This document shows, one piece after another, positions 5,706 to 47,897 of a stretch of 60,448 nt of DNA (positions are counted from its first letter, which is position 1; every line of letters begins with the position of its first letter). The position numbers and the translations under genes are program-made. The stretch comes from a virus (taxonomy: Duplodnaviria; Caudoviricetes): the IMG/VR virus record IMGVR_UViG_3300021479_000021, positions 1 through 60,448 of that record. The stretch is one strand, 5' to 3'. Below the pieces are notes generated by a model that was given only the letters and a program-made list of their open reading frames with translations, searched no databases and was not told where the DNA came from.

Positions 5706-6056
5706 TTATGCTATAATCATCTTAGGTGTTTCTAACCTCCAATTGAGATGCTTCATCATCAGTACAGTGTATGGCCCACCTCTACCTATTGGTTTTGATA
5801 TTCTCCATTTTAAATGTTTCAATATCAGCATAGTTATAAAACTTTCGATCTCATAAGGCTGTAATCTATATTTCTTTTCAAAAACTGACCATATTGAATT
5901 ATAATCAACGGCTAAATATCCATTTTCTTTGTTATTATACATCACTACAAAATCATCCAAATCCTTAACCACAATATTACCTGGATTTTTAGAATCCAAA
6001 GATATAGATCCTAATTTAGATAAGAAAAACTCCTCCAATGATATTATTTTTTTCAT
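5706..6056 (-). CDS. small array-associated protein, copy 1 (reads through repeat-spacer-repeat)
   Basis: paralog of 15937..16284 and 26333..26617 (EEFFL.KL, VVMYN.KN.YL.VDY..IWSVFEK.Y, LKHL.WR..P twice). Confidence 0.8.
   Translation of the reverse strand: MKKIISLEEFFLSKLGSISLDSKNPGNIVVKDLDDFVVMYNNKENGYLAVDYNSIWSVFEKKYRLQPYEIESFITMLILKHLKWRISKPIGRGGPYTVLMMKHLNWRLETPKMIIA
5725..5826 (-). CRISPR. mini CRISPR-like array: 2 repeats, one 30-nt spacer
   Basis: repeat 5725-5760 is 32/36 and repeat 5791-5826 is 24/36 identical to the 16152 repeat; spacer 5761-5790. Confidence 0.7.
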
Positions 6057-7393: not shown

Positions 7394-7436
7394 ATTTTTA
7401 GTGGTTAGTTGAACAATATATGAGTTTATACGGATT

Positions 7437-7462
7437 TTATATCTAAATGTTTCAAAAAGTTT
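7437..7462 (-). promoter_or_regulatory. phage promoter motif AAACTTT-N12-GATATAA (near-identical copies at 8061-8086 and 11121-11146)
   Basis: conserved bipartite motif upstream of minus-strand genes. Confidence 0.65.
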
Positions 7463-7476
7463 TAGTTTTTTTACTA

Positions 7477-8013: not shown

Positions 8014-8070
8014 ATCCTTTAAGTAGTTTAGTTAAACAAATATATACATTTAAACGGAATTTATATCCAA

Positions 8071-8877
8071 ATGTTTCAAAAAGTTTTAAGTTTTTCTGAA
8101 TTCATAAAAGAAAATGCAAATATAGCTAGTTCTATTTCAGCTAAAGGTCTGGAATTCACCAACAAAATTAAATCTTTAGATACTGGTAAACCGCAGTACA
8201 AACATATGCCTTGCTATGAATTTGTATACAAATTTATGAAAATGTATAAACCTGACCTTCCATCAGCTATATTAACAGATCTTAAAATGGCATACAAAAA
8301 GGATATTGGAACCCTTCCAGCTAAAGAATATCTTGAATTAACAAAGAAGAGCTTGCAGGTACCAAGTCAACCAGAAACAATGAGAGGCCTTGAATATGTG
8401 AATCAAAAATATGGTATTGGTAGAATAGTAACTGTTGACCAGGCCAAAATAGGTGATGCAATATCTTTTTGGGTTTATCAATTTATAGAGTTCTCAAGAA
8501 AAGAGAAAAACTACTCCTTCCCTACTACAGAAGCAAGTTTTAAACAGTATTTATTAAAGAACAAATTAGTTGAATCTACATTACCAGAATGGTTAATTGA
8601 AGGTGCACGAATAGAATATGGTCACTATGGTATTATCTCAGATATTGATTCAGAATATTTATACCTAACATCTTCCGGAGAAAAGAATGGTTGTAATGGT
8701 ATATGGAATGGTGTACCTAAATCAGAGTGCTCGGAAAATTTTACTAAAATAAGAAAAGCTGATTTAAAGAAATTTCAAAACAAATCATTTGATGATATGC
8801 TTTTCAGATCTACTGACGAACTTACAAATAAAAGGATTCAAATAATAATGAGAAGTTATATACTGAATTTTATATAA
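8071..8877 (+). CDS. NlpC/P60-like protein with capsid-targeting-like N-terminus
   Basis: KVLSFSEFIKE; PCYEF, AKIGDAISFW, GHYG. Confidence 0.55.
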   Translation: MFQKVLSFSEFIKENANIASSISAKGLEFTNKIKSLDTGKPQYKHMPCYEFVYKFMKMYKPDLPSAILTDLKMAYKKDIGTLPAKEYLELTKKSLQVPSQPETMRGLEYVNQKYGIGRIVTVDQAKIGDAISFWVYQFIEFSRKEKNYSFPTTEASFKQYLLKNKLVESTLPEWLIEGARIEYGHYGIISDIDSEYLYLTSSGEKNGCNGIWNGVPKSECSENFTKIRKADLKKFQNKSFDDMLFRSTDELTNKRIQIIMRSYILNFI

Positions 8878-11084: not shown

Positions 11085-11150
11085 TTTATTTGATAGTTTA
11101 TTTAAACAACTATACGTATTTTATATACAAATGTTTCAAAAAGTTTTAAT

Positions 11151-11996
11151 TTAATAAAATTTATAGTCTGTTACCTTCTGACCCTTCATAATTGAAATCA
11201 TATAGTTTTGATATTTCTTCTGTGTCACGGTATAGTATATAGCATCCCTTCTATAAGTATCAAATTCTGGCTTATACTCATTATCTCTATCTTTACCGAG
11301 AACTATTATTATGTTATAGGCACCACCAAAATTCTTAACATAGAAACCAATATTATTCAAATCATATTTTAACAAACATGAGTGATGTCCAGGAGAAATA
11401 ATAAACTTAGCAGCCCAGTTGTACTTCTTATAATATTCAAGGGCCTCAGGACTATATTTGTTTCTCAACTTATCTGTACTAAATTCTCCGGTTACAATCT
11501 CTGTTACAATTTTAACATCTTTTTCAAAAGTTATATTCTTTTCAATTGTTTCACTTCTTTCTGATACACAATAAAACAGTTTAGAATTGATATAATGATT
11601 GATAGCAGAATTTGAATTAGATAGTTCTATACCATACATTTGATTATAATACTGACTTAGTTCGGCCTCAAGTGAAAGCTTCCTAGAATATTTAAGCTCT
11701 GTCATACCTTTACTTTGTCTATAATTATTTACAAATTCCATGATATTTTTATATTCATTCTGATATTGGATATTATTAGAATCAACATCTTTTATACGTT
11801 CATTCCAGAAATTAGTACTATCCTTCATTTGTTTCAAATAGTAATAATCCCATTCTTTATAGTTTTTAGGCTTTACAAGGACATTAAAATTAGCTTTATC
11901 AAATACCTTAGGATATTTAAGCCATTTCTTTACGGGACCCGTGAATGATATCAGGAGGCTGGTTATAAACAGAATGATTAGGATATACTTTTTCAT
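11151..11996 (-). CDS. secreted CAP/SCP-domain protein
   Basis: signal peptide; VNNYRQSKGMTELKYSRKLSLEA and SPGHHSCLL...IGF. Confidence 0.7.
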   Translation of the reverse strand: MKKYILIILFITSLLISFTGPVKKWLKYPKVFDKANFNVLVKPKNYKEWDYYYLKQMKDSTNFWNERIKDVDSNNIQYQNEYKNIMEFVNNYRQSKGMTELKYSRKLSLEAELSQYYNQMYGIELSNSNSAINHYINSKLFYCVSERSETIEKNITFEKDVKIVTEIVTGEFSTDKLRNKYSPEALEYYKKYNWAAKFIISPGHHSCLLKYDLNNIGFYVKNFGGAYNIIIVLGKDRDNEYKPEFDTYRRDAIYYTVTQKKYQNYMISIMKGQKVTDYKFY

Positions 11997-14598: not shown

Positions 14599-14880
14599 AT
14601 GCCTTACCTTACAGCCATTATAATTATATGTTTCATTATCTTTTTACTTCAAAAACGCAAAAAAGGAGATAAATTAAGTGATAAAATAAAATTGTTCATG
14701 GAAAATAATCCAGATGATAATGTAACAATCCTTGCAGCTAAAATAGCAAAGAGTGAAGATTTTAACTTTATCCCTTTTAATGTGGCTGAAGAATATTGTT
14801 ATCTTATAAATGACGATAAACCTGTTGATCATTTGGATGAAGAGTATGATATCAGTATTAACCTAAACAGAAATGATTAA
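14599..14880 (+). CDS. membrane-anchored hypothetical protein
   Basis: N-terminal TM helix. Confidence 0.6.
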   Translation: MPYLTAIIIICFIIFLLQKRKKGDKLSDKIKLFMENNPDDNVTILAAKIAKSEDFNFIPFNVAEEYCYLINDDKPVDHLDEEYDISINLNRND

Positions 14881-15658
14881 ACATATAAAAATAATCAATA
14901 ATAGAAAATCTCTACTCTGTACATTATGGGGTCCTAAAGAAATAAAACTTTCAGAAAATGTTAATATAATTTTCTCACCAAATGGTACAGGCAAATCTGT
15001 AATGTTAAAAGGTTTAGCTTATTTTACAAGTTGTCAAAAAGGTGGATGGTCCACAGGATTAGATCCATTAGAAGCTAAGCTAGAGGTATTTTCTCCTATG
15101 GAAATAGATTATGTTAAACTAAAAAACAAGAAATCTAAAATTGGAGCTATGAATATTGATTGGGATGGAACACCAACCTACTATTCTAAAGCCATGTTAG
15201 ATGACTCATCTCAGAATATGCAAAATGCTTTATTTGGAATGAATCAAGAAATGAGCCTTGAAGATGCTATAGTGATGCATAAACAAAACTTATCCCAAGG
15301 CCAAACTACAATAACACATTTAAATAACATATTCCAAAGTACCCTTCCTGATATAACATTAGAAAAACATACAGAATCTAATAATATCTGGCAGAAGGCC
15401 GGAAGAATTTTAAGTGATTATGTAAAAACATTACCAAGAGATGGTAAACCAACCATACTCTTAGATGAACCTGACAGAAGTTTTGACTTTATAAATCAAA
15501 GATTCTTCTGGGAAAATGTAAACAAGCTGGCCGAGAAGTTTCAACTGATCATAACTACACATAGTATGTTTGTGTTAACAGATATTGCTAAGGATTTCAA
15601 TATAATAGAAATCACTCCAGGGTATTATAAAAAAGCAAAAGAAATAATAAAAGTATAA
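14873..15658 (+). CDS. ABC/AAA-type ATPase
   Basis: Walker A SPNGTGKS, signature LSQGQ, Walker B ILLDEPD, H-loop TTH. Confidence 0.85.
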   Translation: MIKHIKIINNRKSLLCTLWGPKEIKLSENVNIIFSPNGTGKSVMLKGLAYFTSCQKGGWSTGLDPLEAKLEVFSPMEIDYVKLKNKKSKIGAMNIDWDGTPTYYSKAMLDDSSQNMQNALFGMNQEMSLEDAIVMHKQNLSQGQTTITHLNNIFQSTLPDITLEKHTESNNIWQKAGRILSDYVKTLPRDGKPTILLDEPDRSFDFINQRFFWENVNKLAEKFQLIITTHSMFVLTDIAKDFNIIEITPGYYKKAKEIIKV

Positions 15659-15742: not shown

Positions 15743-15940
15743 ATGACAGATATATTTAAAAAAGATACCTTTTTGAAATTCAATTCAGAAGATAATAGAA
15801 TCGAACAAATCATTGATGTTGATAATGAAACACTCTTTACAAAAAAAAGTAATGATAAAGTCGTCAAATACAAAGAAAAAGATATTCGAGTAAAGATCTA
15901 CAATGGCCTTTGTACATTACATAAAAATTATCCAGTATGA
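15743..15940 (+). CDS. hypothetical protein
   Basis: ORF overlapping (ATGA) the next gene. Confidence 0.55.
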   Translation: MTDIFKKDTFLKFNSEDNRIEQIIDVDNETLFTKKSNDKVVKYKEKDIRVKIYNGLCTLHKNYPV

Positions 15941-16284
15941 CAGCGGAGGATTTTTTGATATTGAAGTTAGGGAGTGTTTCTTTAGACAAAGAATATCCAG
16001 GTAATATCATTATTAAAGATTCGGAAGGATATACTGTGATGTACAATAGAAAAAATCGCTATTTAGAGGTTGATTATATAAATATATGGTCAGTTTTTGA
16101 GAAGCAATATAACATGAATTATACTGATATACAATTATTTATAACTAACATGATGTTGAAGCACCTCAATTGGAGGCCAGAAACACCTTGTTACCAGTGG
16201 GTATGGGAAAACTTTCCGATGTTGAAGCACCTCAATTGGAGGCCAGAAACACCTTTATCAATTGTAGATACACCAGGACCATAG
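15937..16284 (+). CDS. small array-associated protein, copy 2 (C-terminus encoded by array)
   Basis: paralog of copies 1 and 3; MLKHLNWRPETP encoded by repeats 1 and 2. Confidence 0.8.
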   Translation: MTAEDFLILKLGSVSLDKEYPGNIIIKDSEGYTVMYNRKNRYLEVDYINIWSVFEKQYNMNYTDIQLFITNMMLKHLNWRPETPCYQWVWENFPMLKHLNWRPETPLSIVDTPGP

Positions 16285-16450
16285 ATGTTGAAGCACCTCA
16301 ATTGGAGGCCAGAAACACCTTTATTGGCAAGTTTAATACCTTCTTCAATGATGTTGAAGCACCTCAATTGGAGGCCAGAAACACCACCATGTTCTCAGGC
16401 TTTAAAAGAAATGAGATGTTGAAACACCTCAAATGGAAAACACAAACAAG
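16152..16450 (+). CRISPR. CRISPR-like array, 36-nt repeat GATGTTGAAGCACCTCAATTGGAGGCCAGAAACACC (type VI-B-like), 4 spacers
   Basis: identical repeats at 16152, 16218, 16284, 16350 and a degenerate one at 16415; unique spacers of 30, 30, 30 and 29 nt; CCTC/GAGG and TGTT/AACA stems. Confidence 0.92.
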
Positions 16451-18310: not shown

Positions 18311-18384
18311 GGGCTTTTAGCTCAGGTGGTTAGAGCAACTGACTCATAATCAGTAGGTCCTTGGTTCGAGTCCAAGAAGGCCCA
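18311..18384 (+). tRNA. tRNA with CAT anticodon (probably Ile2, otherwise Met); CCA not encoded
   Basis: GGGCTTT/AAGGCCC acceptor stem, ACTGA-CTCATAA-TCAGT anticodon arm, CTTGG-TTCGAGT-CCAAG T arm. Confidence 0.93.
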
Positions 18385-18394
18385 CATAATTATT

Positions 18395-19802: not shown

Positions 19803-20246
19803 CTACAATAACATTCTATTAATCTCTATATCATTATATTCAGTATGTTGTTCGATCCATTTATCAATTGTAGATACACCAGGACCATACCGGCCAATTT
19901 GTAAAGGAATATAATCAATCCGGTAGTCTTCAAAAAACAAAGCTTCATTGTTTAATAATACAAATAAATCATTTTCACCTATATTACCAGTATATTCAAT
20001 TAAAATATCAATATCAGAATTAGATCTGTAGTTACCAATAACTCTACTACCAACAAGAGCTACCTCAAGCACTTTTATACCAGAAGATAACTCCATATCC
20101 AAGACATGTTCTAAATGTACAATTATCTCATCAAAAATTATATCACAATTTTCCAGTGTATCTAAATCCGGATCCGAAATAATTTTATTAGGTTGCGACT
20201 CCTTACGATCAAAATCTTCATCAAATGAATCATTAAAAATCTCCAT
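19803..20246 (-). CDS. minimal nucleotidyltransferase (Pol-beta superfamily)
   Basis: LVGSRVIG...SDIDILIEY...IDYIP. Confidence 0.85.
   Translation of the reverse strand: MEIFNDSFDEDFDRKESQPNKIISDPDLDTLENCDIIFDEIIVHLEHVLDMELSSGIKVLEVALVGSRVIGNYRSNSDIDILIEYTGNIGENDLFVLLNNEALFFEDYRIDYIPLQIGRYGPGVSTIDKWIEQHTEYNDIEINRMLL
19860..19889 (+). other. protospacer identical to array spacer 2 (16254-16283)
   Basis: TTTATCAATTGTAGATACACCAGGACCATA, 30/30. Confidence 0.95.
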
Positions 20247-23447: not shown

Positions 23448-24962
23448 CTATAGTATAACTAATTTCTTAACGGCTCTTCTACCGTTTTGTTTGATAACTT
23501 GAACAAAGTATATCCCGGTAGATAAATCAAAATGTTGATCCTCAGATGTATTCTGTGAAGAAATTGCTGTACCCTTTTCGTTAAAGACACTTATAGATTG
23601 TACATTCGTTGTTGATACATTGAATGAACCACTTGACGGATTTGGATATATTACAAAGTCTTCTTGCGTTGATAATCCATCATTGATCCCAGTAGTAACA
23701 GATTCAGCTGTTTGTGTAATTGTATACTGAGCCGTAACACTACCAGATGTAAGCGTAATTGTCGCCGTTCTATCATATGCTGTATTGTTTAGACTTCCAG
23801 GAACAATAGATAACAATTGATTACCATTAAGGGTAAAACTAGACAGTGATGAGAAATCTAACCAAGAAATATTTATACCAGTAATTGTCCAATTATCATT
23901 TGAAGTAACTTGAACACTTTGTGTGTTAGCCACAATTGATGTCTGATTATATGTAAATGCAACACTATTTGTTGAGACAACCAATGTAGCTACTATAGGC
24001 TGAGCCTTCTGTGTAATGTTAATAGTGATATTTGTTAATCCTGGCGAAGATAGAGTTATAGTTGTAGTTCTATCAGTATTTGTAGTGTTGTCATTTAGTG
24101 TACGAATCCAAAGGATAGTATCGTTAGAGAAAGCTGTACCGGCTAAGATAGTACCAGAACCGTTTTCTATATTTAACCAAGAAGCATCTGTTATAGCCAT
24201 GGACCAATTTGTATTAGAGCTTACCTGAATTTTATTAATATAGGTTGAGCCGTTTATTGTATCACGAGCATTTGAAGCAAAAGTAAGAGCTGTTACAGTT
24301 GTAGTTAAATAAGGTGTTACAGCAACATCTTGCTGGGTAACAGTAAGTGTTATCGTGGTTACACCTGCACTTATTGATATGGTACCAGTTCTTGGTGCTC
24401 CTGTTGTATTATTATCTACATAGAAAGTTATAGAAGTTGTACCAGATAGACCAGAGAGAGTATATGTACCACCAGCTATACCGAATCTCAACCACCCACC
24501 TGTAGAGGTAGCTGTAGCATTCCAATCAGCATCTGAAGTAACAGCTTCTGTATATGTATTCTGTATTGATGATATACTTTTAGTATATTCAACCAAACTC
24601 ATAGTTGCCGGAGAAGCAGTTTGAGTAACAGTTATATCCGTTGAGCTTGCCCCACCGTTAAAGGAAACTGTTATAACACCACTTCTGGAACTTGTTAGAG
24701 AGGGATTAACGGTAACAGCTGACACCGTTACACTTCCTGAACCTGTCCCAGATGGTACACCTGATAATGTTACCCAAGACGGCTTTACGGTAATCGTCCA
24801 TGGCATACCAACAGGTACTGTTATACTGATAATCTGACCCGCCACTCCAGGCGATGCATATGATAAACTACTAGGCAAAACGCCTATCGATACTGCGAAA
24901 CTCGATAATGCTGTCATAAGCATCAGAGACATAACTAATAATATTCTTTTCATGTTTTTCAT
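23448..24962 (-). CDS. secreted protein with four BACON-like domains and a T9SS (Por) C-terminal sorting domain
   Basis: signal peptide; repeated W...WL...N....R.G.IT...TVTQ; IYPNPSSG...GIYFV...KKLVIL. Confidence 0.85.
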   Translation of the reverse strand: MKNMKRILLVMSLMLMTALSSFAVSIGVLPSSLSYASPGVAGQIISITVPVGMPWTITVKPSWVTLSGVPSGTGSGSVTVSAVTVNPSLTSSRSGVITVSFNGGASSTDITVTQTASPATMSLVEYTKSISSIQNTYTEAVTSDADWNATATSTGGWLRFGIAGGTYTLSGLSGTTSITFYVDNNTTGAPRTGTISISAGVTTITLTVTQQDVAVTPYLTTTVTALTFASNARDTINGSTYINKIQVSSNTNWSMAITDASWLNIENGSGTILAGTAFSNDTILWIRTLNDNTTNTDRTTTITLSSPGLTNITINITQKAQPIVATLVVSTNSVAFTYNQTSIVANTQSVQVTSNDNWTITGINISWLDFSSLSSFTLNGNQLLSIVPGSLNNTAYDRTATITLTSGSVTAQYTITQTAESVTTGINDGLSTQEDFVIYPNPSSGSFNVSTTNVQSISVFNEKGTAISSQNTSEDQHFDLSTGIYFVQVIKQNGRRAVKKLVIL

Positions 24963-26300: not shown

Positions 26301-26384
26301 TTGAGGTGCTTCAAGAACTACCTTTTTTGCCGTTATACACTCCACGTAGGTTTTTCAGGCCTACAATTGAGGTGCTTCAAGAAC
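26301..26384 (-). CRISPR. mini CRISPR-like array: full repeat, 30-nt spacer, half repeat
   Basis: repeat 26349-26384 is 31/36 identical to the 16152 repeat; spacer 26319-26348; 18-nt partial repeat 26301-26318. Confidence 0.7.
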
Positions 26385-26617
26385 ATATCTATTATAAACG
26401 TTTGAATGTCTTTATAATTCATACGATATTCCTTTTCAAAAATTGACCATACATGTTCATAATCAACATATAAGTAGCTATTTTTTCTATTGTACATCAC
26501 AACATATCCTTCACTATCTTTAATAATAATAATATTATCACAGTATCTTTCTTTTTTTATAGAAATAGTAAACTCACTTATTTTATTAATAAAAAATTCC
26601 TCAGCAGATTCTTTCAT
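26333..26617 (-). CDS. small array-associated protein, copy 3
   Basis: IIIKDSEGYVVMYNRKNSYLYVDY..VWSIFEK...FLKHLNCRPEKP. Confidence 0.8.
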   Translation of the reverse strand: MKESAEEFFINKISEFTISIKKERYCDNIIIIKDSEGYVVMYNRKNSYLYVDYEHVWSIFEKEYRMNYKDIQTFIIDMFLKHLNCRPEKPTWSV

Positions 26618-27699: not shown

Positions 27700-29928
27700 T
27701 TAATAACCGTTAAACTGATTACTGGAAGGGTTATTAAATGGATTATTTAATGCTTTAGCATAAGAAGCTAAATCATTAAAAGGTCCTAGTTTAATATTAT
27801 ATTTAGATGATTTGTTTACTCTGTTTACAGAATTATTACCTCTTAAAGCAGAGAATAATGATGAGTAGTCAGCCGTACTTATATTAGGATTATTACTTAA
27901 TCTCTCTTCTATTTCATTCAAAATATATGGTGTTTCTGAAAGTAAACTATCACATAAATTATGGAAGGTACTATTCTCAAAAGCTGTTGATAAATTAACA
28001 ATGGACATAACTATATCATCATGTCCTGATTCAGCAGCAAACTGAACACTACCAGCTTTACTTTCCTTTTTAATAAATGTAGACACTTCATGTAGAGTGT
28101 TTTCTTCATGTACAACAATATCAGAAAGTTTCATCCTTTTCTGGTAACTCTTAACAAGGGATTCTTTATTAAGATTGACTTTTAAACCAATACTTTTTTC
28201 TACAGCATCAGCTCTATGTTTGTATCTAAAAAAGACATGACTACTGTATTGATTTCTTCCAAGGAATAAATCTTTAATCTTAGTAGTCATTTCCGAACCA
28301 CCACTATTAAGCTCTAAAACAGCACCTACTTTATCAGGATTAAAAATTTCAAAAGCTATAAGATAAAATAATTCAGTTATTTCAGGCACAGAAATCATAT
28401 TACTTCTATAAAGTCCTATTTGTTCCATATAAAAGAAATCATAAAAATTATCTGGTCTTGTAGGCCATAAATCTTTAGGTTTTATCATTAATCTAAATAT
28501 ATTAAGTACAGAAAAATCTTGTCCTATACCAGTACCAAGATCTATTGAAAAAACAATATGATAATTTTTTATATTAGCTAAAGAAAATAAATTAGGTCTA
28601 TCCTTTATAAATGTTAATCCTGAATAATCTATCATTGTTCTTTGATCAAGTGTAGGTATTTTTAAATGTTCAAAATCAATTTTTCCATTAATGATTTTAT
28701 CCATGAACTGAGCATCAAATATCATTTTATTTCCAGCAAGGAATTGTAACCCGTACTCTTGATTAAATGAGTCTTCTGAACCAATATCAGCTATAGCATC
28801 TTCTTTCCAAGAAGATATATCAGCAATTTCTAACAATCTATATTTTTCTTCACCTCTTTCAAATGTACATTCTCTGAAATAATCTGAAACAGTATTATCA
28901 CCATCTTTTGATACATACGTTTCATTAAACCAGAAAGGTAAATCTTCATACCTATTCAGTATGTGAACAACACTATTACCTTTTAAATAATCATATTTTA
29001 AATTGGCTTTGAAACCTAAATTATTAACCCAATTTAAAATCTCTTCTGCTTTAATATTATATTTAGCACATATATTTTCATCTAATTTTAAATAAGTAAC
29101 AAATCTTCCAGGAACCTGATACCAATAAACTCTTTTAGCATTAAAGTTATTTTTTTTCTTGTCACCAACAGGGCGTTCAGCGTCTTGTAACAATTGGTGG
29201 AATAGATTTAGACCTCGGGGAGTACTTGTAATTATTATTTTAGAATTCTCAAATGAACTTACTGTTGGGTATGTTGTACGATAAAAATCCTCTTGAATAC
29301 TATTATCTACCAAACCAAACTCGTCCATATACAGAATATTTACACTACTTGAGGCCGAACTTGTCGCTGACGCTGAAAGTGTTTTTAGTCTGTTATTATT
29401 GTCGCTAAAAGTTATACTACCCTTTGCCCAGTTATTAACACCAGGTTTTAAAAACATAGGCAATCCAGTATAAATCTCTTTAAATTTAAAAACTATTTCA
29501 GCGATAGTTGTATGTAAGTTAGCGACAATTAAAATATTTCTATTGTTCTCAAAAATACAAGCATGTAATAAAAATATACAAGCTGTTACAGTTTTTGAAG
29601 ATTGCCTGGAAGCCATTATGATGTTGAACCTATTATCAACAAACATATCCAAAATTTCTGCTTGAAAATCCCGTAAAATAATATTTCCGATTGAGCTGTC
29701 TTCTTTTCTTAATAAACAATATGTCTCAGCAAAATATTTAACATCAAATTTACATTTGGTATATTCCATTAATTCCTCTTCTGTGAAATCAAACACCAAA
29801 CCCTCCTTTTTAACAAAAGGCATATTTTTATACCAATATTTTTCATGTCTTGGTATAACAAAACCTCTATCTAACCTATCAGCTATTTCTTTTATTTTTT
29901 CTGTACTAAAAGTTATTTGTTTAGACAT
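27700..29928 (-). CDS. terL: terminase large subunit (T4 gp17-like)
   Basis: LRDFQ, SRQSSKT, YMDEFG, ITSTPRG, FNQEY, IDLGTGIGQDFS, GHDDIVMS. Confidence 0.93.
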   Translation of the reverse strand: MSKQITFSTEKIKEIADRLDRGFVIPRHEKYWYKNMPFVKKEGLVFDFTEEELMEYTKCKFDVKYFAETYCLLRKEDSSIGNIILRDFQAEILDMFVDNRFNIIMASRQSSKTVTACIFLLHACIFENNRNILIVANLHTTIAEIVFKFKEIYTGLPMFLKPGVNNWAKGSITFSDNNNRLKTLSASATSSASSSVNILYMDEFGLVDNSIQEDFYRTTYPTVSSFENSKIIITSTPRGLNLFHQLLQDAERPVGDKKKNNFNAKRVYWYQVPGRFVTYLKLDENICAKYNIKAEEILNWVNNLGFKANLKYDYLKGNSVVHILNRYEDLPFWFNETYVSKDGDNTVSDYFRECTFERGEEKYRLLEIADISSWKEDAIADIGSEDSFNQEYGLQFLAGNKMIFDAQFMDKIINGKIDFEHLKIPTLDQRTMIDYSGLTFIKDRPNLFSLANIKNYHIVFSIDLGTGIGQDFSVLNIFRLMIKPKDLWPTRPDNFYDFFYMEQIGLYRSNMISVPEITELFYLIAFEIFNPDKVGAVLELNSGGSEMTTKIKDLFLGRNQYSSHVFFRYKHRADAVEKSIGLKVNLNKESLVKSYQKRMKLSDIVVHEENTLHEVSTFIKKESKAGSVQFAAESGHDDIVMSIVNLSTAFENSTFHNLCDSLLSETPYILNEIEERLSNNPNISTADYSSLFSALRGNNSVNRVNKSSKYNIKLGPFNDLASYAKALNNPFNNPSSNQFNGY

Positions 29929-31414
29929 TAATAGAAATTATATTTTTAAAATATTCGAATATTTTATCCTCTATATTTTCATTATATTTTATCCTCAACA
30001 AACCAATACCCTTATTTTTACAATATTCATTCTTTATAAAATCACGATGTTGATTATTTTTAAAAGCCTTTTGACCACCAAATATCTCAACTGATTTATA
30101 GTGTTGTTGACCATCATATTCTATAGCTACATTTAAAGAAGGTATATAAAAATCAAATATTAAAGGTCTTTTATTTCTACAATCAGAGAATTTATGTTGT
30201 TTAATAAACTCTACACCTAATTTCTTCAAAACTTTTTCAGATATTTTTTCACCCTTTGAATTTTTGCAATTAGGACAACCACTTCCTCTTAGGTGTCCAA
30301 TAGGCGTTTGTTTAAATTCCCCATGTTTGGGACAAACAATTATAACATTTTTTTTATTACCAACATATTCTACTTTATCATAAGAAAATAAATCACCATG
30401 AACTTTTCTAGCACCAGCAATAAATTCTTCTATTGGTTTAGGTTTTGGTTTCGGTGTACAGTTACTACAACCATATTTTCTACTTGTGTGTTTATTTGGA
30501 CTCTGTAAAAATTTCCCATGTATAGGACATATAATAATCACTTTTTTTATAGAACTAACATATTCTACTTTACTATAATCATATTTATTCTTATGTATAA
30601 TATTTGCTTCTTCTATAAATAATTCTGTTGGTTTCTTAAAATTAGTATTACAATATGTACAACCACAACCTCTCAAATGACTATTTGGAATTTGTTGAAA
30701 AATATTATTACAAGTATTACATTTTATGGATACTTTCTTTCTACTTTTTTTATAATCAACTAAACTATAATCATATTTTAATCCATGTTTATCAATAGCC
30801 TTTTTAATAAAAGTTTCGGTGTTTGATGTTTTTGTTTCATTTCTTCTCTCACAACCACATTTATTACAACCATATCCTTTTATAAGAGCACTTGGTTTAA
30901 TTAAAAAATTACCGTGCTTTTCACATTTCAATACAATCTTAGTTTTAAGATCAACAAAATTGATATTAGAGTAATCATATTTACTATTTACTATTTTTAC
31001 CTTTTCAAGAAAAGTATCTTTTGTATACTTTACATTTTTTGCACATTTTGGACAATTATATTTTAAATGTCCCTCAATTGTTTGTTTAAAATACCCGTGA
31101 ATTTCACAACCAATTTCAACTTTAGTTTTACTGTTTATAATGTAAACCCTACTATAATCATATAAATCACCATGAACTTTATAAGCCCTTCTCAAAAATT
31201 CTTCTTTATCAATTTTTTTGTTACCAGAACAAGCAGGACATCCTTGACCTCTCAAAAAATTGGATGGTTTAGACATAAAAGAACCATGCTCTTTACATAT
31301 AATTTCAACCTTAGTTCTATTATTTACATATATAACTTTACTATAGTCAAATTTATCACCAAATTTTTCTTTAGCCTTTTTTATAAAGACTTCTTTTATG
31401 TTACTAATTTCCAT
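29921..31414 (-). CDS. homing endonuclease-like protein: tandem Zn-binding (DUF723-like) repeats + Vsr/PD-(D/E)xK domain
   Basis: six YDYSKV...C..HG.F...GC..C repeats; FDFYIP...IEYDGQQH...D..KN.YC. Confidence 0.85.
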   Translation of the reverse strand: MEISNIKEVFIKKAKEKFGDKFDYSKVIYVNNRTKVEIICKEHGSFMSKPSNFLRGQGCPACSGNKKIDKEEFLRRAYKVHGDLYDYSRVYIINSKTKVEIGCEIHGYFKQTIEGHLKYNCPKCAKNVKYTKDTFLEKVKIVNSKYDYSNINFVDLKTKIVLKCEKHGNFLIKPSALIKGYGCNKCGCERRNETKTSNTETFIKKAIDKHGLKYDYSLVDYKKSRKKVSIKCNTCNNIFQQIPNSHLRGCGCTYCNTNFKKPTELFIEEANIIHKNKYDYSKVEYVSSIKKVIIICPIHGKFLQSPNKHTSRKYGCSNCTPKPKPKPIEEFIAGARKVHGDLFSYDKVEYVGNKKNVIIVCPKHGEFKQTPIGHLRGSGCPNCKNSKGEKISEKVLKKLGVEFIKQHKFSDCRNKRPLIFDFYIPSLNVAIEYDGQQHYKSVEIFGGQKAFKNNQHRDFIKNEYCKNKGIGLLRIKYNENIEDKIFEYFKNIISINV

Positions 31415-34267: not shown

Positions 34268-37200
34268 ATGGCAGGAAAATCAGTAATGGGTGGTGTTGTT
34301 ATGCCTTTACCAATAGTTCACTTAGAACTGGTTAACCCTGGGCCTACCATGAAGTTTGTATTCAAGATGTTTAAAGAGAATGGCCAGAATACACCATTAC
34401 TTATTCCATATATTGATAACCCATCAAGTATTCCGGTTCCTGGTATAGTTCAACTCCTTAAAGGGGATCTTGGTATTGCTGAAAAAATATTATCACCACT
34501 ATTACAAACAACATTACCTTTTTTTGCTAACCCTTCTGTTCCAGTATCTGGAACAAATAAACCAGGTTCTTATTCTTTTGGAACAAACAAGAATCTGAAT
34601 GCTAGTCAAAAAAATTATATAGACAGTACTGCCGGAACCAGAGTAGGCTTTAAAAGTTTTGAAATGACAGCTATTCAAGGTATGATGGAATCATTAAAAC
34701 CTTTGATGGAGATTGCATTAATTTTAATGGAACTTCTCGCTGTTATCGAAGATGTTATTTGTAGGAATAAAGCAACATCGATTAAAATTCCTGTAGTTGG
34801 TTGGATAGGTTTCCCATCTAGGAAACCAAAATATACTTATGGTTCATTAAATTATAATTTACAACATTTTAGAAAAGCTTTACAGAATGGTGTTAAAGCC
34901 TTTAATGCTGGTGACACATATCCAGCAATAGCAACAAGTACACCTGGTGGTAGTGCCCAACCACCAGATGACCAAGATCCAACTGGTGCGGATCCAAGAG
35001 ATTCTATTTATCTTGCTTATTTTGATGAAGACGGTAATGTTATAACACCTCCAGCCTGGGTGTTAAATTCTGGTAAATGGGGATTTTCTCCAGCACAGGC
35101 TGATATTGTTACAACAACTGGGGATAATCCAGAGAAAACTGGATTTCCACTTTTATCTGATACAATCATGACTGGTGTTAATCAACTTTACAAATACCAT
35201 TTAACTGTTATTAATCAGACACCTGCTTTAATTGTACAAAGTGATGCTTATGCAGCTAATCTTGATAGTAATACACCACCTACATATGTAAACCAATCTG
35301 ATATATTACAAGCACTCGGTACAGATTTTGATCCGAACAAACATATAAATGAAATAAATGGACAAGTTAATGAGTTACAAAATAATATAAGTGATACGGT
35401 TCGTCAGACTATACTTGGTGAGTATATAAACAAACATTTAAATTCACAATTAAAAAATAGATATATCGAGAAAGTATCTACTGGTCAGATTTTTCAAGCT
35501 AAAGATCTAAATTCTAATACAAACCCAGAAGATAGTAATAGCATTAATATAGTTTATCCAATATTTTCCTCAGTTGTTACTTTAACAGGGGATACAACAT
35601 CATCTACTTTAAGTGCAGAGGTATATGCTGTCCCTAAAGGTGGCACAGCTCAACAACTTACACCATATCCAAATGATTTCCGAATAAAAAATGATAATGG
35701 TAGTTATGTTGAATTAAGACAAAAAAATGATTCTAAAATATATTATGAAAAAATTACTTTAGTAGCAAATTTTCAAACAGTAGATACTATTGATGCTTAT
35801 TTTAATACAAATGCGAATCCAGCTTCTGTACCAGCAGATAAAATTATCGTACCCGAAAATACAACTAAATATAAAAACAATAAAATTCCAGGAATAGTAT
35901 TATCTTATTATTTACCTTTAGTATGGGAGGAAGTTCTTGTATATCAAATACAAAAAAATATTTTAACAACAGATTCTGCTGGTAACGCATCAAAACAAAC
36001 TGTTGTTATAGGAAATGAAACGGATACTATACAACATATAATAGAACCCGAATTAGATTATGAAATAAGACTTATTCAAGTAATAAATTTACCGATAATA
36101 TCAGATGGTTCAATAAATAATTTAGTTGCAGCTTTTCCGAAACCAAATTATTTAGTTGTCTTCAGAGAGGAATTTACCCAATCCAGTGTAATACCTATAC
36201 CGGTAACAAGTGCTGGTAGAATTGATAGACAGCCCTCTACTACAGTAAAACCACCACAAACAAAATATTTACAAATCTCAGAACTTACTTCAGATATACC
36301 AACGATAGCATATGTTGCTATAACTGTTAACGCTGATACCACAACAGATTTAAAAATGTATGACCCAATAGATCATACAATGCTTTTAAGATATATTAAT
36401 GATAACAATTTAGTTGTTGGTAATTATTACTACTTACGATATACTAATACAGAATTTGGTACAGAATCAGCTAATAACAATAATGATAACGGTGAATTTT
36501 ATCAGATAAGATCATTAAAGCAAAATTGGATTAAGGAAACTTTCACATCAAACTTTGATTCAAGAATGAATAATATAACAGGAGTTTTTCCTTCACCTCC
36601 TGTTATGATTGAAACAACAACCAATGATACAGAAACTATATTGTTCGATGCTCCGACACAGTCTATAAGAATACACAAAAGTAAAAACGTTATACCTTCC
36701 TACATAACCGATTCTACACAACCACAATTACAATTTTTGAGTGGTACTATTAATATAGGCATATTTTTCGTTTATAAAATTCAAACCTCTGGAGATTATA
36801 TAATTTACAATATAAATTCTACTTTGAGTTCTACTCTTATAAAATCAGAAAAAATTGCTGCTAATTATTATTTTACAAATGTTAATAGTGGTGTTATGCT
36901 TAATTGGACACCTGCTGTTGTAGCATTTCAGTATCTTGATTCAAATCAAATAGACTTACAAGGTAACTTGAGTGCTTATACGGGTAATATAGAACTTTAC
37001 GGTGTTAAACAATTAAGTGTTATAGATGATATCTTTACAAAGAAAGGTAATACAATATTCTTAGATGGTGTAAACACCGATCAAGATTATAGTAACCAGA
37101 CTAATCCTTTACAAGCTATACAAAAAGCAACTTCTTATTTAGCAAATCTTGATAAAATGATAGATGGTTTTTATACTGTAAATGGTATTAAAACAATAAC

Positions 37201-39100
37201 TACCGAAAAAGGTCTTAGTATTAATGTAATAGATCTTGACCCAAACGATTTATCTATTATCAATAATAGAACCGCTTACATATCAAATCCTGCTATATCA
37301 TGGTATAGACCTTTTAATATTACTGAAGCACCAAGTATTACAGATATAGAAGGTAATAATAATTTTCCTAATTATAATTCTCAAACAGGAACAGCCTTTT
37401 ATGAACCTACTTCTGTTGCTCCTACTTTTAGAATACCAGCGAAATATAAAGGTCAAAATTATGAGCATATAGTTCCTGCTATAAACATGGGTAATGACCA
37501 AGGTGAAGGTATTGTATTTCAAGGGTTAGATCCAAGATATGTTAGTAGAACAAAATGGAAAGTTTTCTGGCTTGTTGAAGCAATAAAAAAAGATACAGCA
37601 CCTATCATATTTGGTGAGGCTTCCATTGGTGCACCATCACCTTTACCTACAGATGTACCTACCTGGCAACTTCCGGATCCAGGACCAACACCAGATACTA
37701 GTCCAAGTGGACAAGAGTGGTATAGTTTAATTCATAAATTAACAGCTTTACCTTATCTTATATCAAAATTAGGTGTTCTTTTATTTGGTAAATTAATACC
37801 AGCTATTAAAAAATTAATACAATTAGCTTCAAACCCAACTAAAATTACGGATCTTCTTCTTCAGATAATAAAAACAAAGATTTCTAAAAATATGGAATTC
37901 TTTGACAATTCATTTACTCAAAATGATTTCAATCAATCTGTAAAGAGTTCTCAAGGTAGTTCAAAATATTTTTATACAGGAAAAACAACAAATCCTAGTA
38001 TGCCATCTACAGCTTCCTTTATTTTAGATGGTGCCGGTGTAGCAAAGTTTGGTGCCAGCTTAGGTCTTAATTTTCCATTTGGTGTAAAAGTATCCACTCT
38101 TAATCAGGGTAATAGTAATACAAAACCAACATATAATAGTAATTGGTTTAGTGCTGTTACCACTGACAATAGAACAGCAGCCGAAAAAGATCCAACAAAA
38201 TTTCAAACAAAAAGAGATCAACCAATAATTAAGATGATTCTTAACATCATTAAAATTCCTTTTGAAGTAATATTTTTGATTGCTAAATGGTTAATATGTT
38301 GGGTTAAGAAACTTACAAACCCAGCATTACTTTTATCAGCTGTAGAAGAATTATTATCGTTTAAATGGCTTCTTTGTATTATAAGTCCTATGACACTTTT
38401 AAAGATGGTGGGAGCTTCAACCAAACCAGCCGGTTGTGGATGTACTTCTGATGATAGTAGCTTAGGCCCTGATTTAGTAGCTCTTCTTGCTGCCTTTGAT
38501 ACGGATGCCGATAATATAGGTAAAAATGCTGCTCCTCAAGGTGCTCAAGCACTTATAGATGATTTAATCAAAGATATTGCTGGTATTGGTAATAATGATT
38601 TAGTTGAAGTTCTCGTTTACAATATCTACAAAAATGGTATATACGTATCCAGTGAACAAGATATAATACCATATAACCCCTTGAGTGATAGTGGTACACT
38701 CAATCCTAGTGTTCCTCCTTTAGATGCTAATGGTAATACGAATACACCAGCAGGGAATGCTGCTTCGGCTGCTGCTAATAGTCCTGTTCCACCTTCTGGT
38801 TGTGGACCTAACACATTTGATTTAAGTGGTCTTATCGCTATGCCTTTTGTTTCGAGTATGCCTTTATTAAATAAATGTCAAGTTATACAAGTATTTTTAA
38901 AACCACTTCAGATGATACTTGGTTTATTGACAACAATCCAGGAATTTCTCAATGCTTTTATAGGAATGCCTACAGCAATTTTTGGTTTAGAACCAACTTT
39001 ATCTGTACCAAAAATTGATGTTATAAGTAGTATCCAAGCCAAAATTACTAAATTGACAGCTACCTTAACACAAACCACACCAATGACTCCGGTTAAATAG
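34268..39100 (+). CDS. very large (1610 aa) probable virion structural protein
   Basis: T/N/P-rich core with amphipathic helical termini; no catalytic motif recognised. Confidence 0.6.
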   Translation: MAGKSVMGGVVMPLPIVHLELVNPGPTMKFVFKMFKENGQNTPLLIPYIDNPSSIPVPGIVQLLKGDLGIAEKILSPLLQTTLPFFANPSVPVSGTNKPGSYSFGTNKNLNASQKNYIDSTAGTRVGFKSFEMTAIQGMMESLKPLMEIALILMELLAVIEDVICRNKATSIKIPVVGWIGFPSRKPKYTYGSLNYNLQHFRKALQNGVKAFNAGDTYPAIATSTPGGSAQPPDDQDPTGADPRDSIYLAYFDEDGNVITPPAWVLNSGKWGFSPAQADIVTTTGDNPEKTGFPLLSDTIMTGVNQLYKYHLTVINQTPALIVQSDAYAANLDSNTPPTYVNQSDILQALGTDFDPNKHINEINGQVNELQNNISDTVRQTILGEYINKHLNSQLKNRYIEKVSTGQIFQAKDLNSNTNPEDSNSINIVYPIFSSVVTLTGDTTSSTLSAEVYAVPKGGTAQQLTPYPNDFRIKNDNGSYVELRQKNDSKIYYEKITLVANFQTVDTIDAYFNTNANPASVPADKIIVPENTTKYKNNKIPGIVLSYYLPLVWEEVLVYQIQKNILTTDSAGNASKQTVVIGNETDTIQHIIEPELDYEIRLIQVINLPIISDGSINNLVAAFPKPNYLVVFREEFTQSSVIPIPVTSAGRIDRQPSTTVKPPQTKYLQISELTSDIPTIAYVAITVNADTTTDLKMYDPIDHTMLLRYINDNNLVVGNYYYLRYTNTEFGTESANNNNDNGEFYQIRSLKQNWIKETFTSNFDSRMNNITGVFPSPPVMIETTTNDTETILFDAPTQSIRIHKSKNVIPSYITDSTQPQLQFLSGTINIGIFFVYKIQTSGDYIIYNINSTLSSTLIKSEKIAANYYFTNVNSGVMLNWTPAVVAFQYLDSNQIDLQGNLSAYTGNIELYGVKQLSVIDDIFTKKGNTIFLDGVNTDQDYSNQTNPLQAIQKATSYLANLDKMIDGFYTVNGIKTITTEKGLSINVIDLDPNDLSIINNRTAYISNPAISWYRPFNITEAPSITDIEGNNNFPNYNSQTGTAFYEPTSVAPTFRIPAKYKGQNYEHIVPAINMGNDQGEGIVFQGLDPRYVSRTKWKVFWLVEAIKKDTAPIIFGEASIGAPSPLPTDVPTWQLPDPGPTPDTSPSGQEWYSLIHKLTALPYLISKLGVLLFGKLIPAIKKLIQLASNPTKITDLLLQIIKTKISKNMEFFDNSFTQNDFNQSVKSSQGSSKYFYTGKTTNPSMPSTASFILDGAGVAKFGASLGLNFPFGVKVSTLNQGNSNTKPTYNSNWFSAVTTDNRTAAEKDPTKFQTKRDQPIIKMILNIIKIPFEVIFLIAKWLICWVKKLTNPALLLSAVEELLSFKWLLCIISPMTLLKMVGASTKPAGCGCTSDDSSLGPDLVALLAAFDTDADNIGKNAAPQGAQALIDDLIKDIAGIGNNDLVEVLVYNIYKNGIYVSSEQDIIPYNPLSDSGTLNPSVPPLDANGNTNTPAGNAASAAANSPVPPSGCGPNTFDLSGLIAMPFVSSMPLLNKCQVIQVFLKPLQMILGLLTTIQEFLNAFIGMPTAIFGLEPTLSVPKIDVISSIQAKITKLTATLTQTTPMTPVK

Positions 39101-44217: not shown

Positions 44218-44247
44218 AAAAAAGGAGCTCTATTGGGCTCCTTTTTT
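44218..44247. terminator. bidirectional terminator
   Basis: AAAAAAGGAGCTC-tatt-GGGCTCCTTTTTT. Confidence 0.75.
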
Positions 44248-47200
44248 ATTTAGTCGTTCTTTCTGTTTAAGATCAACTTTAGCTTTTTTAATAGCTTCCT
44301 TCAAATATTCTCTTACATCATCTTCAAGATTTTTACCAGTCTTTAACTCATTGTAAATATATTGTGGATCAGCACCTTGTTGTTCAATTAAATATTTTGT
44401 TTTTTCTAGTGATGCAACCTGGTCACCACTCCAAGATTTTCTAGCTGCGTTAATACCAAGATCATTAATATTGATTATCTTACCTTTGTATTTATTAAAC
44501 AAAAATTCTAATCCTTCATCAGATTCACCATTATAAGCATATGATTCAACCAACTTATTTATTTCTTCATCTGTTAATTGTGGACCATTTTCTATCAGGT
44601 ATTTCATTATTTCATATGAGTATGTTGAGTATAACATTTGTTTAAATGTGTATTTAAACTTAAGATCCTCTACAAAATATTTAATGATTCCCATCATGTC
44701 ATTAATATTTTCATTGGATTGTTTTTTGACAGCCTCAGCAAAAGATGATATAATTATTTCAGATTTTTCTGATTTATTAAAATGATAACTTTTTGTTTCA
44801 ATGACTTTTCGATCCTTATAGTAGGCACCTTTACTTATAAGATATTTGACAAGTTCCAAATTACCACCTTTAATAGCACTTATTAAAGCAGTTCCGTTAT
44901 TAGATTCAAAACTTCTTGAACCAGAATTATATTTATTTAAGTCAACACCTAAACTTTCTAAAAATTTAACTATATCTGTATGACCATTGACTGAGGCCTT
45001 CAATAAATATAAGTTCAGATCTTTTTTATCTAATATATTATATTTCTGTCCTAACTTAAGAATATCTAAATGACCATTTGATGCAGCATATTCAAATATA
45101 GAATTACTTAAAATATTATCCTTAAATTTTTTGTACCCATTCTCAAGTGCAAAATTTAATATGTCAGTATAACCATTGTAACCAATCGTAAAATAATCTA
45201 AATCTTTTAAGGATGCACCATTATTAAATAATAATTTAACCATTTCTAAATCATCATTTTTACAAGCCTCATATATAGGAGCATGAGAATGTTTATCAGG
45301 TTCATTTACAGGACAACCATTTTTAATTAAATAAGCAACAAGTTTTGTATTATCAACAATTTTCTCTTCGTTTTCTTTACTATATTGGTCCTTTATTGCT
45401 TGAGTTATAGGAGCACTTCCAAGTTTCTTCAAATCAAGATTTTCTTTATCAATAAGTTTCTTTAATTGATCATATTTTTTATTTCTAATTGTATAACTTA
45501 CCCATTTATTTAAGGTATCCTTACATATTTCAGATAAATCATTATTTCTTTCATAAAAGAAATCCATGATCTCATGAACATCCTTATCACTTGCGTATTG
45601 TATTATTGAATAATTATTATCAGGAGAAACCTTTTCACCGTAGTTAGTTTTTTTTAAACCTGATGGTTCAGCACCAGCTTCAAGAAACATTAAAAGTATT
45701 TTATTATTTAGATCTGTTTCTTCATCATAACGACCTGGGATAGTTGATAGAAATATTGAATTAGAAGAATTTGGTAAATTTGGATTTGCACCTTTATCAA
45801 GTAAAAACTTAATTTTATCTATATCTTTTTCATGTACAGACATACCCAATAATTCACCACCATCAACATTTATATCACCACCTCTTTTTAAGTATTCATA
45901 AAATCTTTTTTCATCATTTAAATGGTAGAAGAATTTTAATTCGTCTATTTCCTTCTTGTCAGAATTTTCTTCATCAAAGCAAGGCTCCGCACCTAAATCA
46001 AACAATTTTTTAGCTAATTCTACATTGAAAGAAAAATCTGGATTATTGATTAATTTTACCGGAATAGCTTGTATAGTAATAAACATTGGTGTTTCTCTAA
46101 AACGATTATAACTTATATTCATATTCAAGACACTTTTATCAAAAGCTAAAAATTTATCAATAAGTTCTTCATTTTTAAGATTAATAACATCAGGAAAAAA
46201 GGCCTTTATAGTTTCTTTATCGAATTTATAATTTTCAATATAAAAATTAATAAGTGGTATTTGAATATCTTGGGTTATATTTTTATTTCTATTTTCAATA
46301 GATAATTGTGAAGCTATATTATTCTTATCTTCATCAGAGAGCTCTTTAATTAGATTAGGAAACTGTTTGGATAAAAACATGAACAGTTTTATAGCTTGTA
46401 CCTTAGAAGCATAAACAATTTGATTTTGTGTGCTTATGGCTTTATTTGGTCTGATATTTTTAATATCTGTTAATGCGTATACCTCATCACTTGATCTGTA
46501 ACCTTTAGTGAGCAAATATTTATAAAAATCAACATCATCCATAGCTATAGATAAAGTTAAAGGAAATTTATAGTTTGTATGAATATGACAACCTTTATCA
46601 TACAAAAAAATAATAAAATCTTTGTTTTTCTGTGTCTGCATGGCTACATAATCAATATATTCATAATTAACAGAATTAACTTCAATAAATCCGTCTATTT
46701 TATAACCATAATCATTTATTAATTTGTTAAATAGTTCTTCATCACAATTAACGAGGGCTAAATTCATTACAGCATTATCATCAGTAAATGGATTCAAACC
46801 GTTATCGAATAAATAAAATATTTTTTCATTATCACTTGTTCTTATAGCTGCCTTAAACTCATATAATAATTCAATCTCTTTTTGTTTATCTTCTTTCTCT
46901 GAGATACTCATTGGTTTTAAAACATTCAGTGGAATATTATACTGTTTAGCATATTGATCAAAATCTCTGATTTGAGTATCATCTTTAAAATGTGCAGCAT
47001 TATTATTGTTACTTGGTTTGTATACATTACCATCTTGATCAATTGTAACACCAACTCTTGTGTGAATGTCAGAGAAAGGTACAGCAAAATCCCATATAGA
47101 ATATTGGGCATTAAATTTATATTCAGCTCCTACATAAGTATCCCAGTGTGTTTTAGAATCTTTTATACACCAGGATGTATCACTTAGTAAAGCTTTAGAA

Positions 47201-47844: not shown

Positions 47845-47897
47845 TAATTTTATTGAGTTTGAATTATATATCAAATTTTACTAATATACAATACAAG

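Follow-up and report, generated by a model that had tools for sequence, protein, structure and literature searches.

Can the last codons of a phage gene also be the first repeat of a CRISPR array, and if so, what would use such an array? The question is raised by the Caudoviricetes record IMGVR_UViG_3300021479_000021, a whole IMG/VR record of 60,448 bp that we call the window. In it, the last 12 residues (MLKHLNWRPETP) of a small protein, paralog B, whose open reading frame (ORF) starts at 15937, are encoded by the first of a series of 36-nucleotide (nt) repeats separated by spacers of about 30 nt. An earlier note on this DNA had reported three such genes, each leading into a repeat array, and had interpreted them as RNA-guide modules without cas genes. 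We find that the coupling of gene and array is a trait of the whole gene family, that the repeat is constrained as nucleic acid beyond its protein-coding role, and that the spacers behave as CRISPR spacers and not as peptide linkers.

At locus B, four identical repeats are followed by a degenerate fifth that differs at 8 of 36 positions, with start-to-start spacings of 66, 66, 66, and 65 nt (Table 1). The B 36-mer occurs four times in the window when up to three mismatches are allowed, a count reached in 0 of 100 dinucleotide shuffles, and locus B has the composition that defines a CRISPR array, namely, at least three direct repeats of 23-50 nt that are nearly identical and are set apart by unique spacers of similar length. 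As 66 is divisible by three, the called ORF extends beyond the conserved protein, through two spacers. The start of the gene overlaps the stop of an upstream ORF of 65 amino acids (aa) (15743-15940) in the sequence ATGA. The two minus-strand paralogs, A and C, called as ORFs 5706-6056 and 26333-26617, have identities of 55% and 65%. A profile search of the six-frame translation returns exactly these three paralogs, as the earlier note had claimed, although the gene limits it gave need correction: the conserved protein has about 84-90 aa, and the 115/116-aa ORFs at B and A are read-through into spacers.

A repeat model finds eight repeats in the window, all of them within the three loci. At locus A, the repeat inside the gene scores 18.8 bits and the second repeat 24.5 bits; conservation of the in-gene copy is at the protein level only. 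By reading, the second repeat of A and the repeat of C differ from the B repeat at 4 and 5 of 36 positions, respectively, whereas the in-gene copy of A is far more diverged. The truncated terminal repeat of array C matches the first 18 nt of its repeat identically and continues into unrelated sequence. Where a CRISPR array would have a non-coding AT-rich leader at its first repeat, the upstream sequence here is the coding sequence of the small protein. Of the earlier note's observation that each gene runs without a leader into the same repeat, the missing leader is upheld, the first repeat being itself coding, but not the repeat, which is not the same across the loci.

Table 1. Positions of the gene-array units in the window and of the match to an array B spacer
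Feature	Positions	Strand	Description
Paralog A core	5790-6056	-	ends ...ILKHLKWRISKP; called ORF 5706-6056 reads through spacer and second repeat
Array A	5725-5826	-	diverged in-gene repeat 5791-5826, 30-nt spacer 5761-5790, well-kept repeat 5725-5760
Paralog B core	15937-16188	+	84 codons, ends ...MLKHLNWRPETP; called ORF continues to 16284 through two spacers
Array B	16152-16450	+	5 repeats, 4 spacers
Array B, identical repeats	16152-16187, 16218-16253, 16284-16319, 16350-16385	+	36 nt each
Array B, fifth repeat	16415-16450	+	degenerate
Array B, spacers 1-3	16188-16217, 16254-16283, 16320-16349	+	30 nt each
Array B, spacer 4	16386-16414	+	29 nt
Paralog C core	26345-26617	-	ends ...FLKHLNCRPEKPT; ORF stop at 26333 falls inside spacer
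Array C	26301-26384	-	repeat 26349-26384, 30-nt spacer 26319-26348, truncated terminal repeat 26301-26318
Self-protospacer	19860-19889	+	exact 30/30 match to array B spacer 2 (16254-16283), inside ORF 19803-20246 (-)

The arrangement extends well beyond this one phage. The loci compared, at 29-95% identity, came from viral contigs (3) and from metagenome contigs (33); together with the three of the window and after removal of duplicates, they make 32 distinct loci. Coupling was scored where the 16 nt that open the terminal-codon stretch recur, with no more than three mismatches, 60-72 nt downstream. It is present in 21 of the 32 loci, down to 30% protein identity, as compared with 17 of 2614 control windows further downstream, some of which are themselves further true repeats; two additional loci (A of the window, and L035) pass looser criteria by eye. 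The gene and its array can therefore be treated as one unit, as the earlier note proposed. That note had also held that its reading would be refuted if homologs mostly lacked arrays, and most of the loci carry them. In about one-third of the family loci the gene stands without an array, with the in-gene repeat only.

A protein profile search of 1.84 billion representatives gives a family of at least 417 cluster representatives at E ≤ 1e-3, with few close homologs of the small protein (3 in a collection of 5.8 billion sequences). Among the 151 family representatives listed, 41 repeat their C-terminal 6-mer at a spacing of 21-23 aa (1/151 when shuffled), and the true share would be at least this high, as any array whose first spacer has an in-frame stop escapes the count. 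GenBank phages gave no tblastn match with the window protein or P0041 and no blastn match with the array. Records carry two to three gene-array units each, and some contigs contain tandem runs. No conserved neighboring gene is found beside any of 35 loci, which leaves gene and array as the sole constant parts of the unit.

Several individual loci add to this picture. Paralogs and their arrays lie head to tail in L028, L032, L035, L038, and L039, and some of the spacers are common to contigs from different metagenomes. A single family member was found among 185,579 species genomes, in a Cyclobacteriaceae metagenome-assembled genome (MAG); its 588-aa ORF (L042:2576-4342) comprises five fused domain copies with no array, and it retains remnants of the repeated C-terminal motif internally. 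The near-identical genes of L018 and L021, one with and one without an array, were considered as evidence of an insertion or deletion and set aside, as the two sequences diverge fully after the repeat and both start at contig ends. P0025 was likewise discarded as a family member, being a eukaryote-like BTB/BACK false positive.

Between clades the repeats diverge strongly, but in every case they encode a C-terminal motif, (V/L)-E/K-x-H-(F/L)-K/N-x-x-x-x-T-P, and across the family they co-vary with the protein C-terminus. The consensus of 23 phage repeats starts with G-N-T-G, has an A-rich middle, and ends with ACACC. Codon choice within this stretch departs from the background. In the 23-repeat set, the final Thr codon is ACA in 20 of 21 repeats (background share 0.466), the Phe codon is TTC in 7 of 7 (background 0.235), and the clade of the window uses the rare Leu codon CTC (background 0.038); because the repeat rows are related, these figures are not exact probabilities. 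The repeat terminates after the second base of the Pro codon, so that any spacer that follows completes Pro and the conserved ..TP end does not depend on the spacer. By the same token, the protein tolerates whatever C-terminal tail a spacer encodes.

For the spacers, we assembled a set of 44 in 21 arrays, with 43 unique spacers in the analyses of origin; these are related sequences, and the counts are not independent. Exactly 30 nt is the length of 32 of the 44, within a range of 26-32 nt. All spacers are unique except in duplicated units; one such unit is seen at L021:258-353, where spacers 1 and 2 are identical and a single repeat-spacer unit has been duplicated. Within an array, the repeats are identical or nearly so, except that 18 of 21 arrays have 2-19 differences between the first copy and the last. 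By eye, these differences fall in the gene-distal part of the last copy, often as an abrupt break after 18-21 nt, and single-spacer arrays with a truncated last repeat are common. The arrays are thus polar, with intact repeats on the gene side and a degenerate repeat on the far side. The type II-C array of a Cyclobacteriaceae MAG (G003, described below) proved to be of no use as a guide to these truncated repeats, as it ends with an intact repeat.

The composition of the spacers points outside the phage. Their content of G and C (GC) is 37.4%, 9.8 points higher than the 27.5% of the resident loci, and 0 of 2000 resamplings of local 30-mers reach it. Because the spacer GC exceeds that of the resident loci, most spacers are not random DNA of the resident genome, and outside sources are suggested. 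At least one spacer has been copied from other DNA: spacer 2 of array B recurs exactly at 19860-19889, a match that the earlier note overlooked, with no identity extending into the flanks, and as written in the array it is antisense to the surrounding ORF. This ORF encodes a 147-aa nucleotidyltransferase (NTP_transf_2) with weak PADLOC matches to PDC-S09, and the protospacer lies near its 3' end. The gene is absent from the records of two relatives, G001 (166.9 kb) and G002 (75.6 kb). A flanking motif that is required may be missing from the self-matching spacer, or its acquisition may have been accidental.

The protein itself resembles nothing with a name. An AlphaFold2 model of paralog B built from 78 sequences (predicted local distance difference test score, pLDDT, 95.2; predicted template modeling score, pTM, 0.83) orders the fold as one helix, four strands, and two helices, with the repeat-encoded residues predicted to make up the terminal part of the last helix together with the tail. 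A Foldseek search of the PDB gives no significant match (best E 0.37), and in BFVD the matches are only to unnamed "uncultured Caudovirales phage" proteins, with template modeling (TM) scores of 0.63-0.73, which are probably members of the same family. Pfam has no hit for any of the three paralogs, PADLOC and PHROGs have none, and the Atlas contains no named cluster; longer family members show no consistent extra Pfam domain. The earlier note could not assign the protein to a known family, and the structure prediction and fold search that it had suggested assign it to none; the model gives a confident new fold. No result lends support to the proposal of that note that the protein binds or processes repeat RNA or modulates an effector. 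About one-third of the loci retain the gene but no array, so the protein has its own function.

How would such arrays arise and be used? Published systems offer partial precedents. Type VI-B systems have a 36-nt repeat, a 30-nt spacer, and a 66-nt CRISPR RNA (crRNA) and lack cas1 and cas2 (10.1101/092577). The phage arrays share this geometry and the lack of cas1 and cas2 at the locus, and the hosts of VI-B are Bacteroidota. In Flavobacterium columnare, the VI-B array gains spacers in trans via the Cas1 of a II-C system, and its spacers, many of which do not target mRNA, originate in host as well as phage DNA (PMC8092290). That array would resemble those of the phage in growing, without a cas1 of its own, through the adaptation of another system and in holding self and phage spacers with no mRNA bias. 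For viral CRISPR mini-arrays that lack cas genes, the presumption is that Cas proteins are provided in trans (PMC11656645). Like these, the phage arrays are short (1-5 spacers), lie on a virus genome, and have no cas genes nearby, but here the first repeat is inside a conserved gene, there is no leader, the genome carries two to three or more copies, and the units can be in tandem. Moreover, no identical host repeat was found in the genomes searched, and the sole spacer match is to the phage itself.

The explanation we favor, while judging the case for and against it to be evenly balanced, is that these are CRISPR-type mini-arrays with a dual-coded first repeat, which grow through host adaptation in trans and whose guides load a host class-2 effector to the benefit of the phage. 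The same 36 nt would be both the last 12 residues (..TP) of a conserved phage protein and the leader-proximal repeat. Because the first repeat is dual-coded, the gene occupies the position of a leader, and its 3' end would act as leader plus first repeat for an integrase of the Cas1-Cas2 type. The likeliest supplier would be the II-C module of the Bacteroidota host, which has a 30-nt ruler and already serves a cas1-less VI-B array in trans. Each insertion would add a 30-nt spacer, duplicate the 36 nt, and alter only a dispensable protein tail. The resulting repeat-spacer RNAs could load a class-2 effector of the host (Cas9 of II-C or Cas13b of VI-B), and the phage might gain by targeting rivals or the host, which the high spacer GC fits, or by decoy loading of the effector. 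Much would depend on the transcribed strand. If it is the gene strand, type V-like RNAs with the repeat before the spacer would make every spacer usable despite the truncated last repeat, while VI-B-type RNAs with the spacer before the repeat would waste the last spacer. If it is the opposite strand, as in II-C (PMC8092290), a full repeat would follow every spacer, and the retained terminal half-repeat would adjoin the last spacer.

A bolder version of this explanation seems to us doubtful, though it merits a tentative mention. It holds that gene-embedded guide arrays make up a large, undescribed family in which the coding sequence is a mutation-proof leader and first repeat, and that huge phages of Bacteroidota without Cas capture 30-nt spacers via host adaptation and re-aim the host effector at the chromosome or at rivals; or, more radically, that the small protein is the RNA partner of a Cas-free guide system.

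Several results weigh against host-dependent mini-arrays. The sole protospacer found (1 of 43 unique spacers) lies in the phage itself and would be self-targeting, and spacers 1 and 3 of array B have no exact match in IMG/VR. Spacers that target related viruses, as is characteristic of viral mini-arrays, were not seen among the related loci or records compared, a small data set. A k-mer classifier, with an accuracy of 76% on coding 30-mers, places 26 spacers as sense-like and 17 as antisense-like, which is no clear strand bias. The repeats differ among the three paralogs of one genome. They show no conserved RNA structure either, with RNAalifold predicting no consensus pairs for the 23 repeats. 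A terminal 4-base-pair stem, the pairing expected of VI-B, is paired in 71.4% of cells, not above the 68.7% of shuffles, with no real covariation, and the fold of a single repeat is weak (z -0.31 sense, -1.72 antisense). VI-B repeats are defined by complementary 5'-GUUG/CAAC-3' ends and a poly-U loop (10.1101/092577), features that, going by the published description of VI-B, are absent as such from the phage repeats. Rfam at gathering thresholds identifies only tRNA and no CRISPR-DR family; at E ≤ 10 the only such family is CRISPR-DR35, out of register and on the other strand, with E 3.6.

The expected machinery and host repeat are also missing from the sequences searched. Profiles for Cas1, Cas2, and the RuvC_III domain of Cas9 find nothing in the window, G001, or G002, all fragments that sum to about 300 kb (CheckV completeness 29% and 14% for the two relatives); in the control genomes, too, the RuvC_III search gave no positive. 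Scanned with PADLOC, 9 ORFs of the window and, from G001 and G002, 19 ORFs of at least 584 aa show no Cas. The description of the module as Cas-less accordingly stands for the readable 14-31% of these genomes and reaches no further. The large ORFs without assignment in the phage records match no family, so that a novel effector among them is no more than conceivable. Neither the tracrRNA (trans-activating crRNA) anti-repeat nor the adjacent cas9-cas1-cas2 genes of a II-C locus are present in the window, where nothing repeat-like matches outside the three loci, although a host could provide them. A 29-nt core of the repeat has 0 exact matches in 185,579 species genomes or IMG/VR, for a phage whose host has not been identified. 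Among the 150 matches listed in 151 Bacteroidota genomes for R1, a sequence model of the 23 phage repeats, none forms a periodic pair, and they are isolated and weak; the best single bacterial match, L045, was dismissed as intergenic noise.

The nearest bacterial counterparts that we could compare are arrays of the II-C type. The Cyclobacteriaceae MAG G003, which contains a homolog of the small protein, has a locus with Cas9 (RuvC_III and HNH), Cas1, and Cas2, whose repeats are 47 nt and spacers 30 nt long. Among 401 Bacteroidota genomes sampled, 69 contain homologs of this Cas1; the presence of Cas9 was checked at the G003 locus, and the others are termed II-C-type on Cas1 homology alone. Of the best 30 Cas1 loci, 26 include an array, and 20 of these are cleanly delimited. 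All 20 have 30-nt spacers, with repeats of 46-47 nt in 15 and of 36 nt in 5, and the phage arrays agree with this geometry. The 36-nt subset (5/20), to which both F. columnare arrays belong, has the repeat length of the phage arrays, which differ in lying on a phage genome and beginning inside a gene. Written from cas1 toward the array, the II-C-type repeats end ...GAAAGCAAATCACAAC beside the spacer; written from gene to array, the phage repeats end ...GTAACACC. In the Bacteroidota genomes of L098-L127, both repeat-length classes share the spacer-proximal end ...AAAGCAAATCACAAC.

Compared in register, 22 phage repeats and four 36-nt bacterial repeats have a mean identity of 15.6/36 (best pair 24/36), as against 9.9 (standard deviation 0.93) for shuffles, but a reverse-complement control is also high, at 14.2/36. 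In local alignments between phage and II-C repeats, with scores of 7.59 versus 6.89, 59% of pairs align better in the leader-to-array orientation and 21% in the reverse one; the only non-II-C control repeats are GC-rich and hence a poor control. Because R1 does not detect II-C arrays (best 9.9 bits), the likeness is weak, and we treat this sequence comparison as a lead and not as a membership.

Against this background, other explanations can be weighed. The phage may not be Cas-less at all: an effector, perhaps with an adaptation module, could lie elsewhere in a jumbo or huge phage genome, with the units as its dispersed arrays. The records leave room for it, being only 31%, 29%, and 14% complete, and the phage repeats are unlike every bacterial array examined. 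Huge phages are reported with CRISPR systems, some of them without adaptation or nuclease modules (PMC11656645), and arrays of huge phages have been reported before (PMC7162821). Compact type V effectors encoded by phages use crRNAs with the repeat before the spacer (PMC12141684), a layout that would fit the truncated last repeats. We nevertheless consider this rather unlikely, given that no Cas1, Cas2, RuvC_III, or PADLOC Cas appears in the roughly 300 kb of the three records and that none of the 35 loci has a conserved neighbor gene. Alternatively, the phage could itself supply everything by means other than Cas, with the small protein binding the repeats of its own mRNA or aiding a phage integrase of some other kind that copies 30-nt pieces beside the repeat. 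The constancy of gene and array alone, the confident fold that no PDB entry, Pfam or PHROG family, or PADLOC model matches, the co-variation of repeats with the protein C-terminus, and the failure to find cas genes would all suit such a system. However, an 85-aa protein is improbable as an integrase, known CRISPR adaptation in Bacteroidota works with exactly this 36/30 ruler, and about one-third of the loci dispense with the array, and for these reasons we think a self-contained system unlikely.

It could also be that the repeat matters and the spacers do not. Single repeat units in viruses act as dominant-negative inhibitors, or RNA anti-CRISPRs (Racr; PMC11656645), and a host-like repeat in an abundant phage mRNA might tie up host Cas in this way, with the spacers as guide-less by-products of the host adaptation complex. 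Here, too, a repeat-like sequence sits within a phage transcript, and about one-third of the family has the in-gene repeat only; the self-derived spacer and the absent strand bias would fit accidental capture, as would the many single-spacer arrays. Ectopic integration of spacers, giving rise to new arrays, is reported to have been described by Nivala et al. in 2018. By-products, however, should be rare and short-lived, whereas arrays are found in 21 of 32 loci, some with 4-5 spacers and intact, identical repeats. Most loci bear true spacers that by their GC are not derived from the phage, the repeat is protein-coding, and no cognate host repeat is known for it to mimic. A decoy is therefore distinctly unlikely in our estimation. 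The explanation that would dispense with nucleic acid function altogether is selection on a peptide, a C-terminal tandem repeat of 22 residues (12 conserved and 10 hypervariable). Its attraction is that 66 is a multiple of three and that many called ORFs read through 2-4 units. Yet in-frame stops in the spacers, at 0.050 per codon, are as frequent as in the other five frames (0.036-0.090), and 21 of 31 spacers are open in frame compared with 14-25 of 31 in the others; because in-frame stops are not depleted, the spacers are not selected as peptide. Arrays extend past the stop codon, spacings of 65 or 67 nt break the reading frame, and one spacer reproduces a stretch of another gene verbatim, in antisense. 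These observations contradict a peptide repeat, which we reject as barely credible.

Host-dependent mini-arrays with a dual-coded first repeat would have wider consequences. If the arrays do grow through host machinery, then a protein-coding sequence can replace a leader, and phages can keep a repeat-spacer memory without any cas gene. This would bear on the origin of new arrays and on phage-host and phage-phage conflict in soil Bacteroidota. A dual-coded repeat that ends in the middle of a Pro codon is, in addition, an elegant example of constraints that overlap. Repeats overlapping ORFs are usually discarded by CRISPR finders, and a family of at least 417 protein clusters may for this reason have gone unseen. 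In the literature searched, no CRISPR-like array with its start inside a conserved phage gene is reported (supplements, possibly with repeat lists, were outside the search), and as far as our searches show, the gene-embedded arrangement has not yet been described.

As for the phage, the record has a CheckV completeness of 31% and a GC of about 29%. It encodes a T4-type large terminase (27700-29928), a protein (23448-24962, minus strand) in which three BACON domains are combined with a type-IX-secretion sorting domain at the C-terminus, and a 1214-aa ankyrin-repeat protein (44230-47874, minus strand), which together indicate a large phage of Bacteroidota, probably a jumbo phage. The region is present in one public DNA sequencing run, a soil metagenome in which the contigs are fragmented over gene and array, and in no RNA run listed. 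A scan for sigma-70 promoters and terminators was uninformative for this type of host. An ABC/SMC-type ATPase (14873-15658) that resembles defense ATPases (AriA, PtuA, and GajA models) is encoded on the strand of paralog B, two genes upstream of it. A 1610-aa ORF on the plus strand (34268-39100) has no match in Pfam, PADLOC, or PHROGs. A 57-nt motif occurs three times (7415-7471, 8039-8095, and 11099-11155), with 75-86% identity to the reference copy, and may be a phage promoter or regulatory element. There is a tRNA-Met (CAT) gene at 18311-18385 on the plus strand. Abutting the large terminase gene, a 497-aa protein (29921-31414, minus strand) with DUF4379 and DUF723 zinc-ribbon domains looks like an insertion of the homing-endonuclease type.

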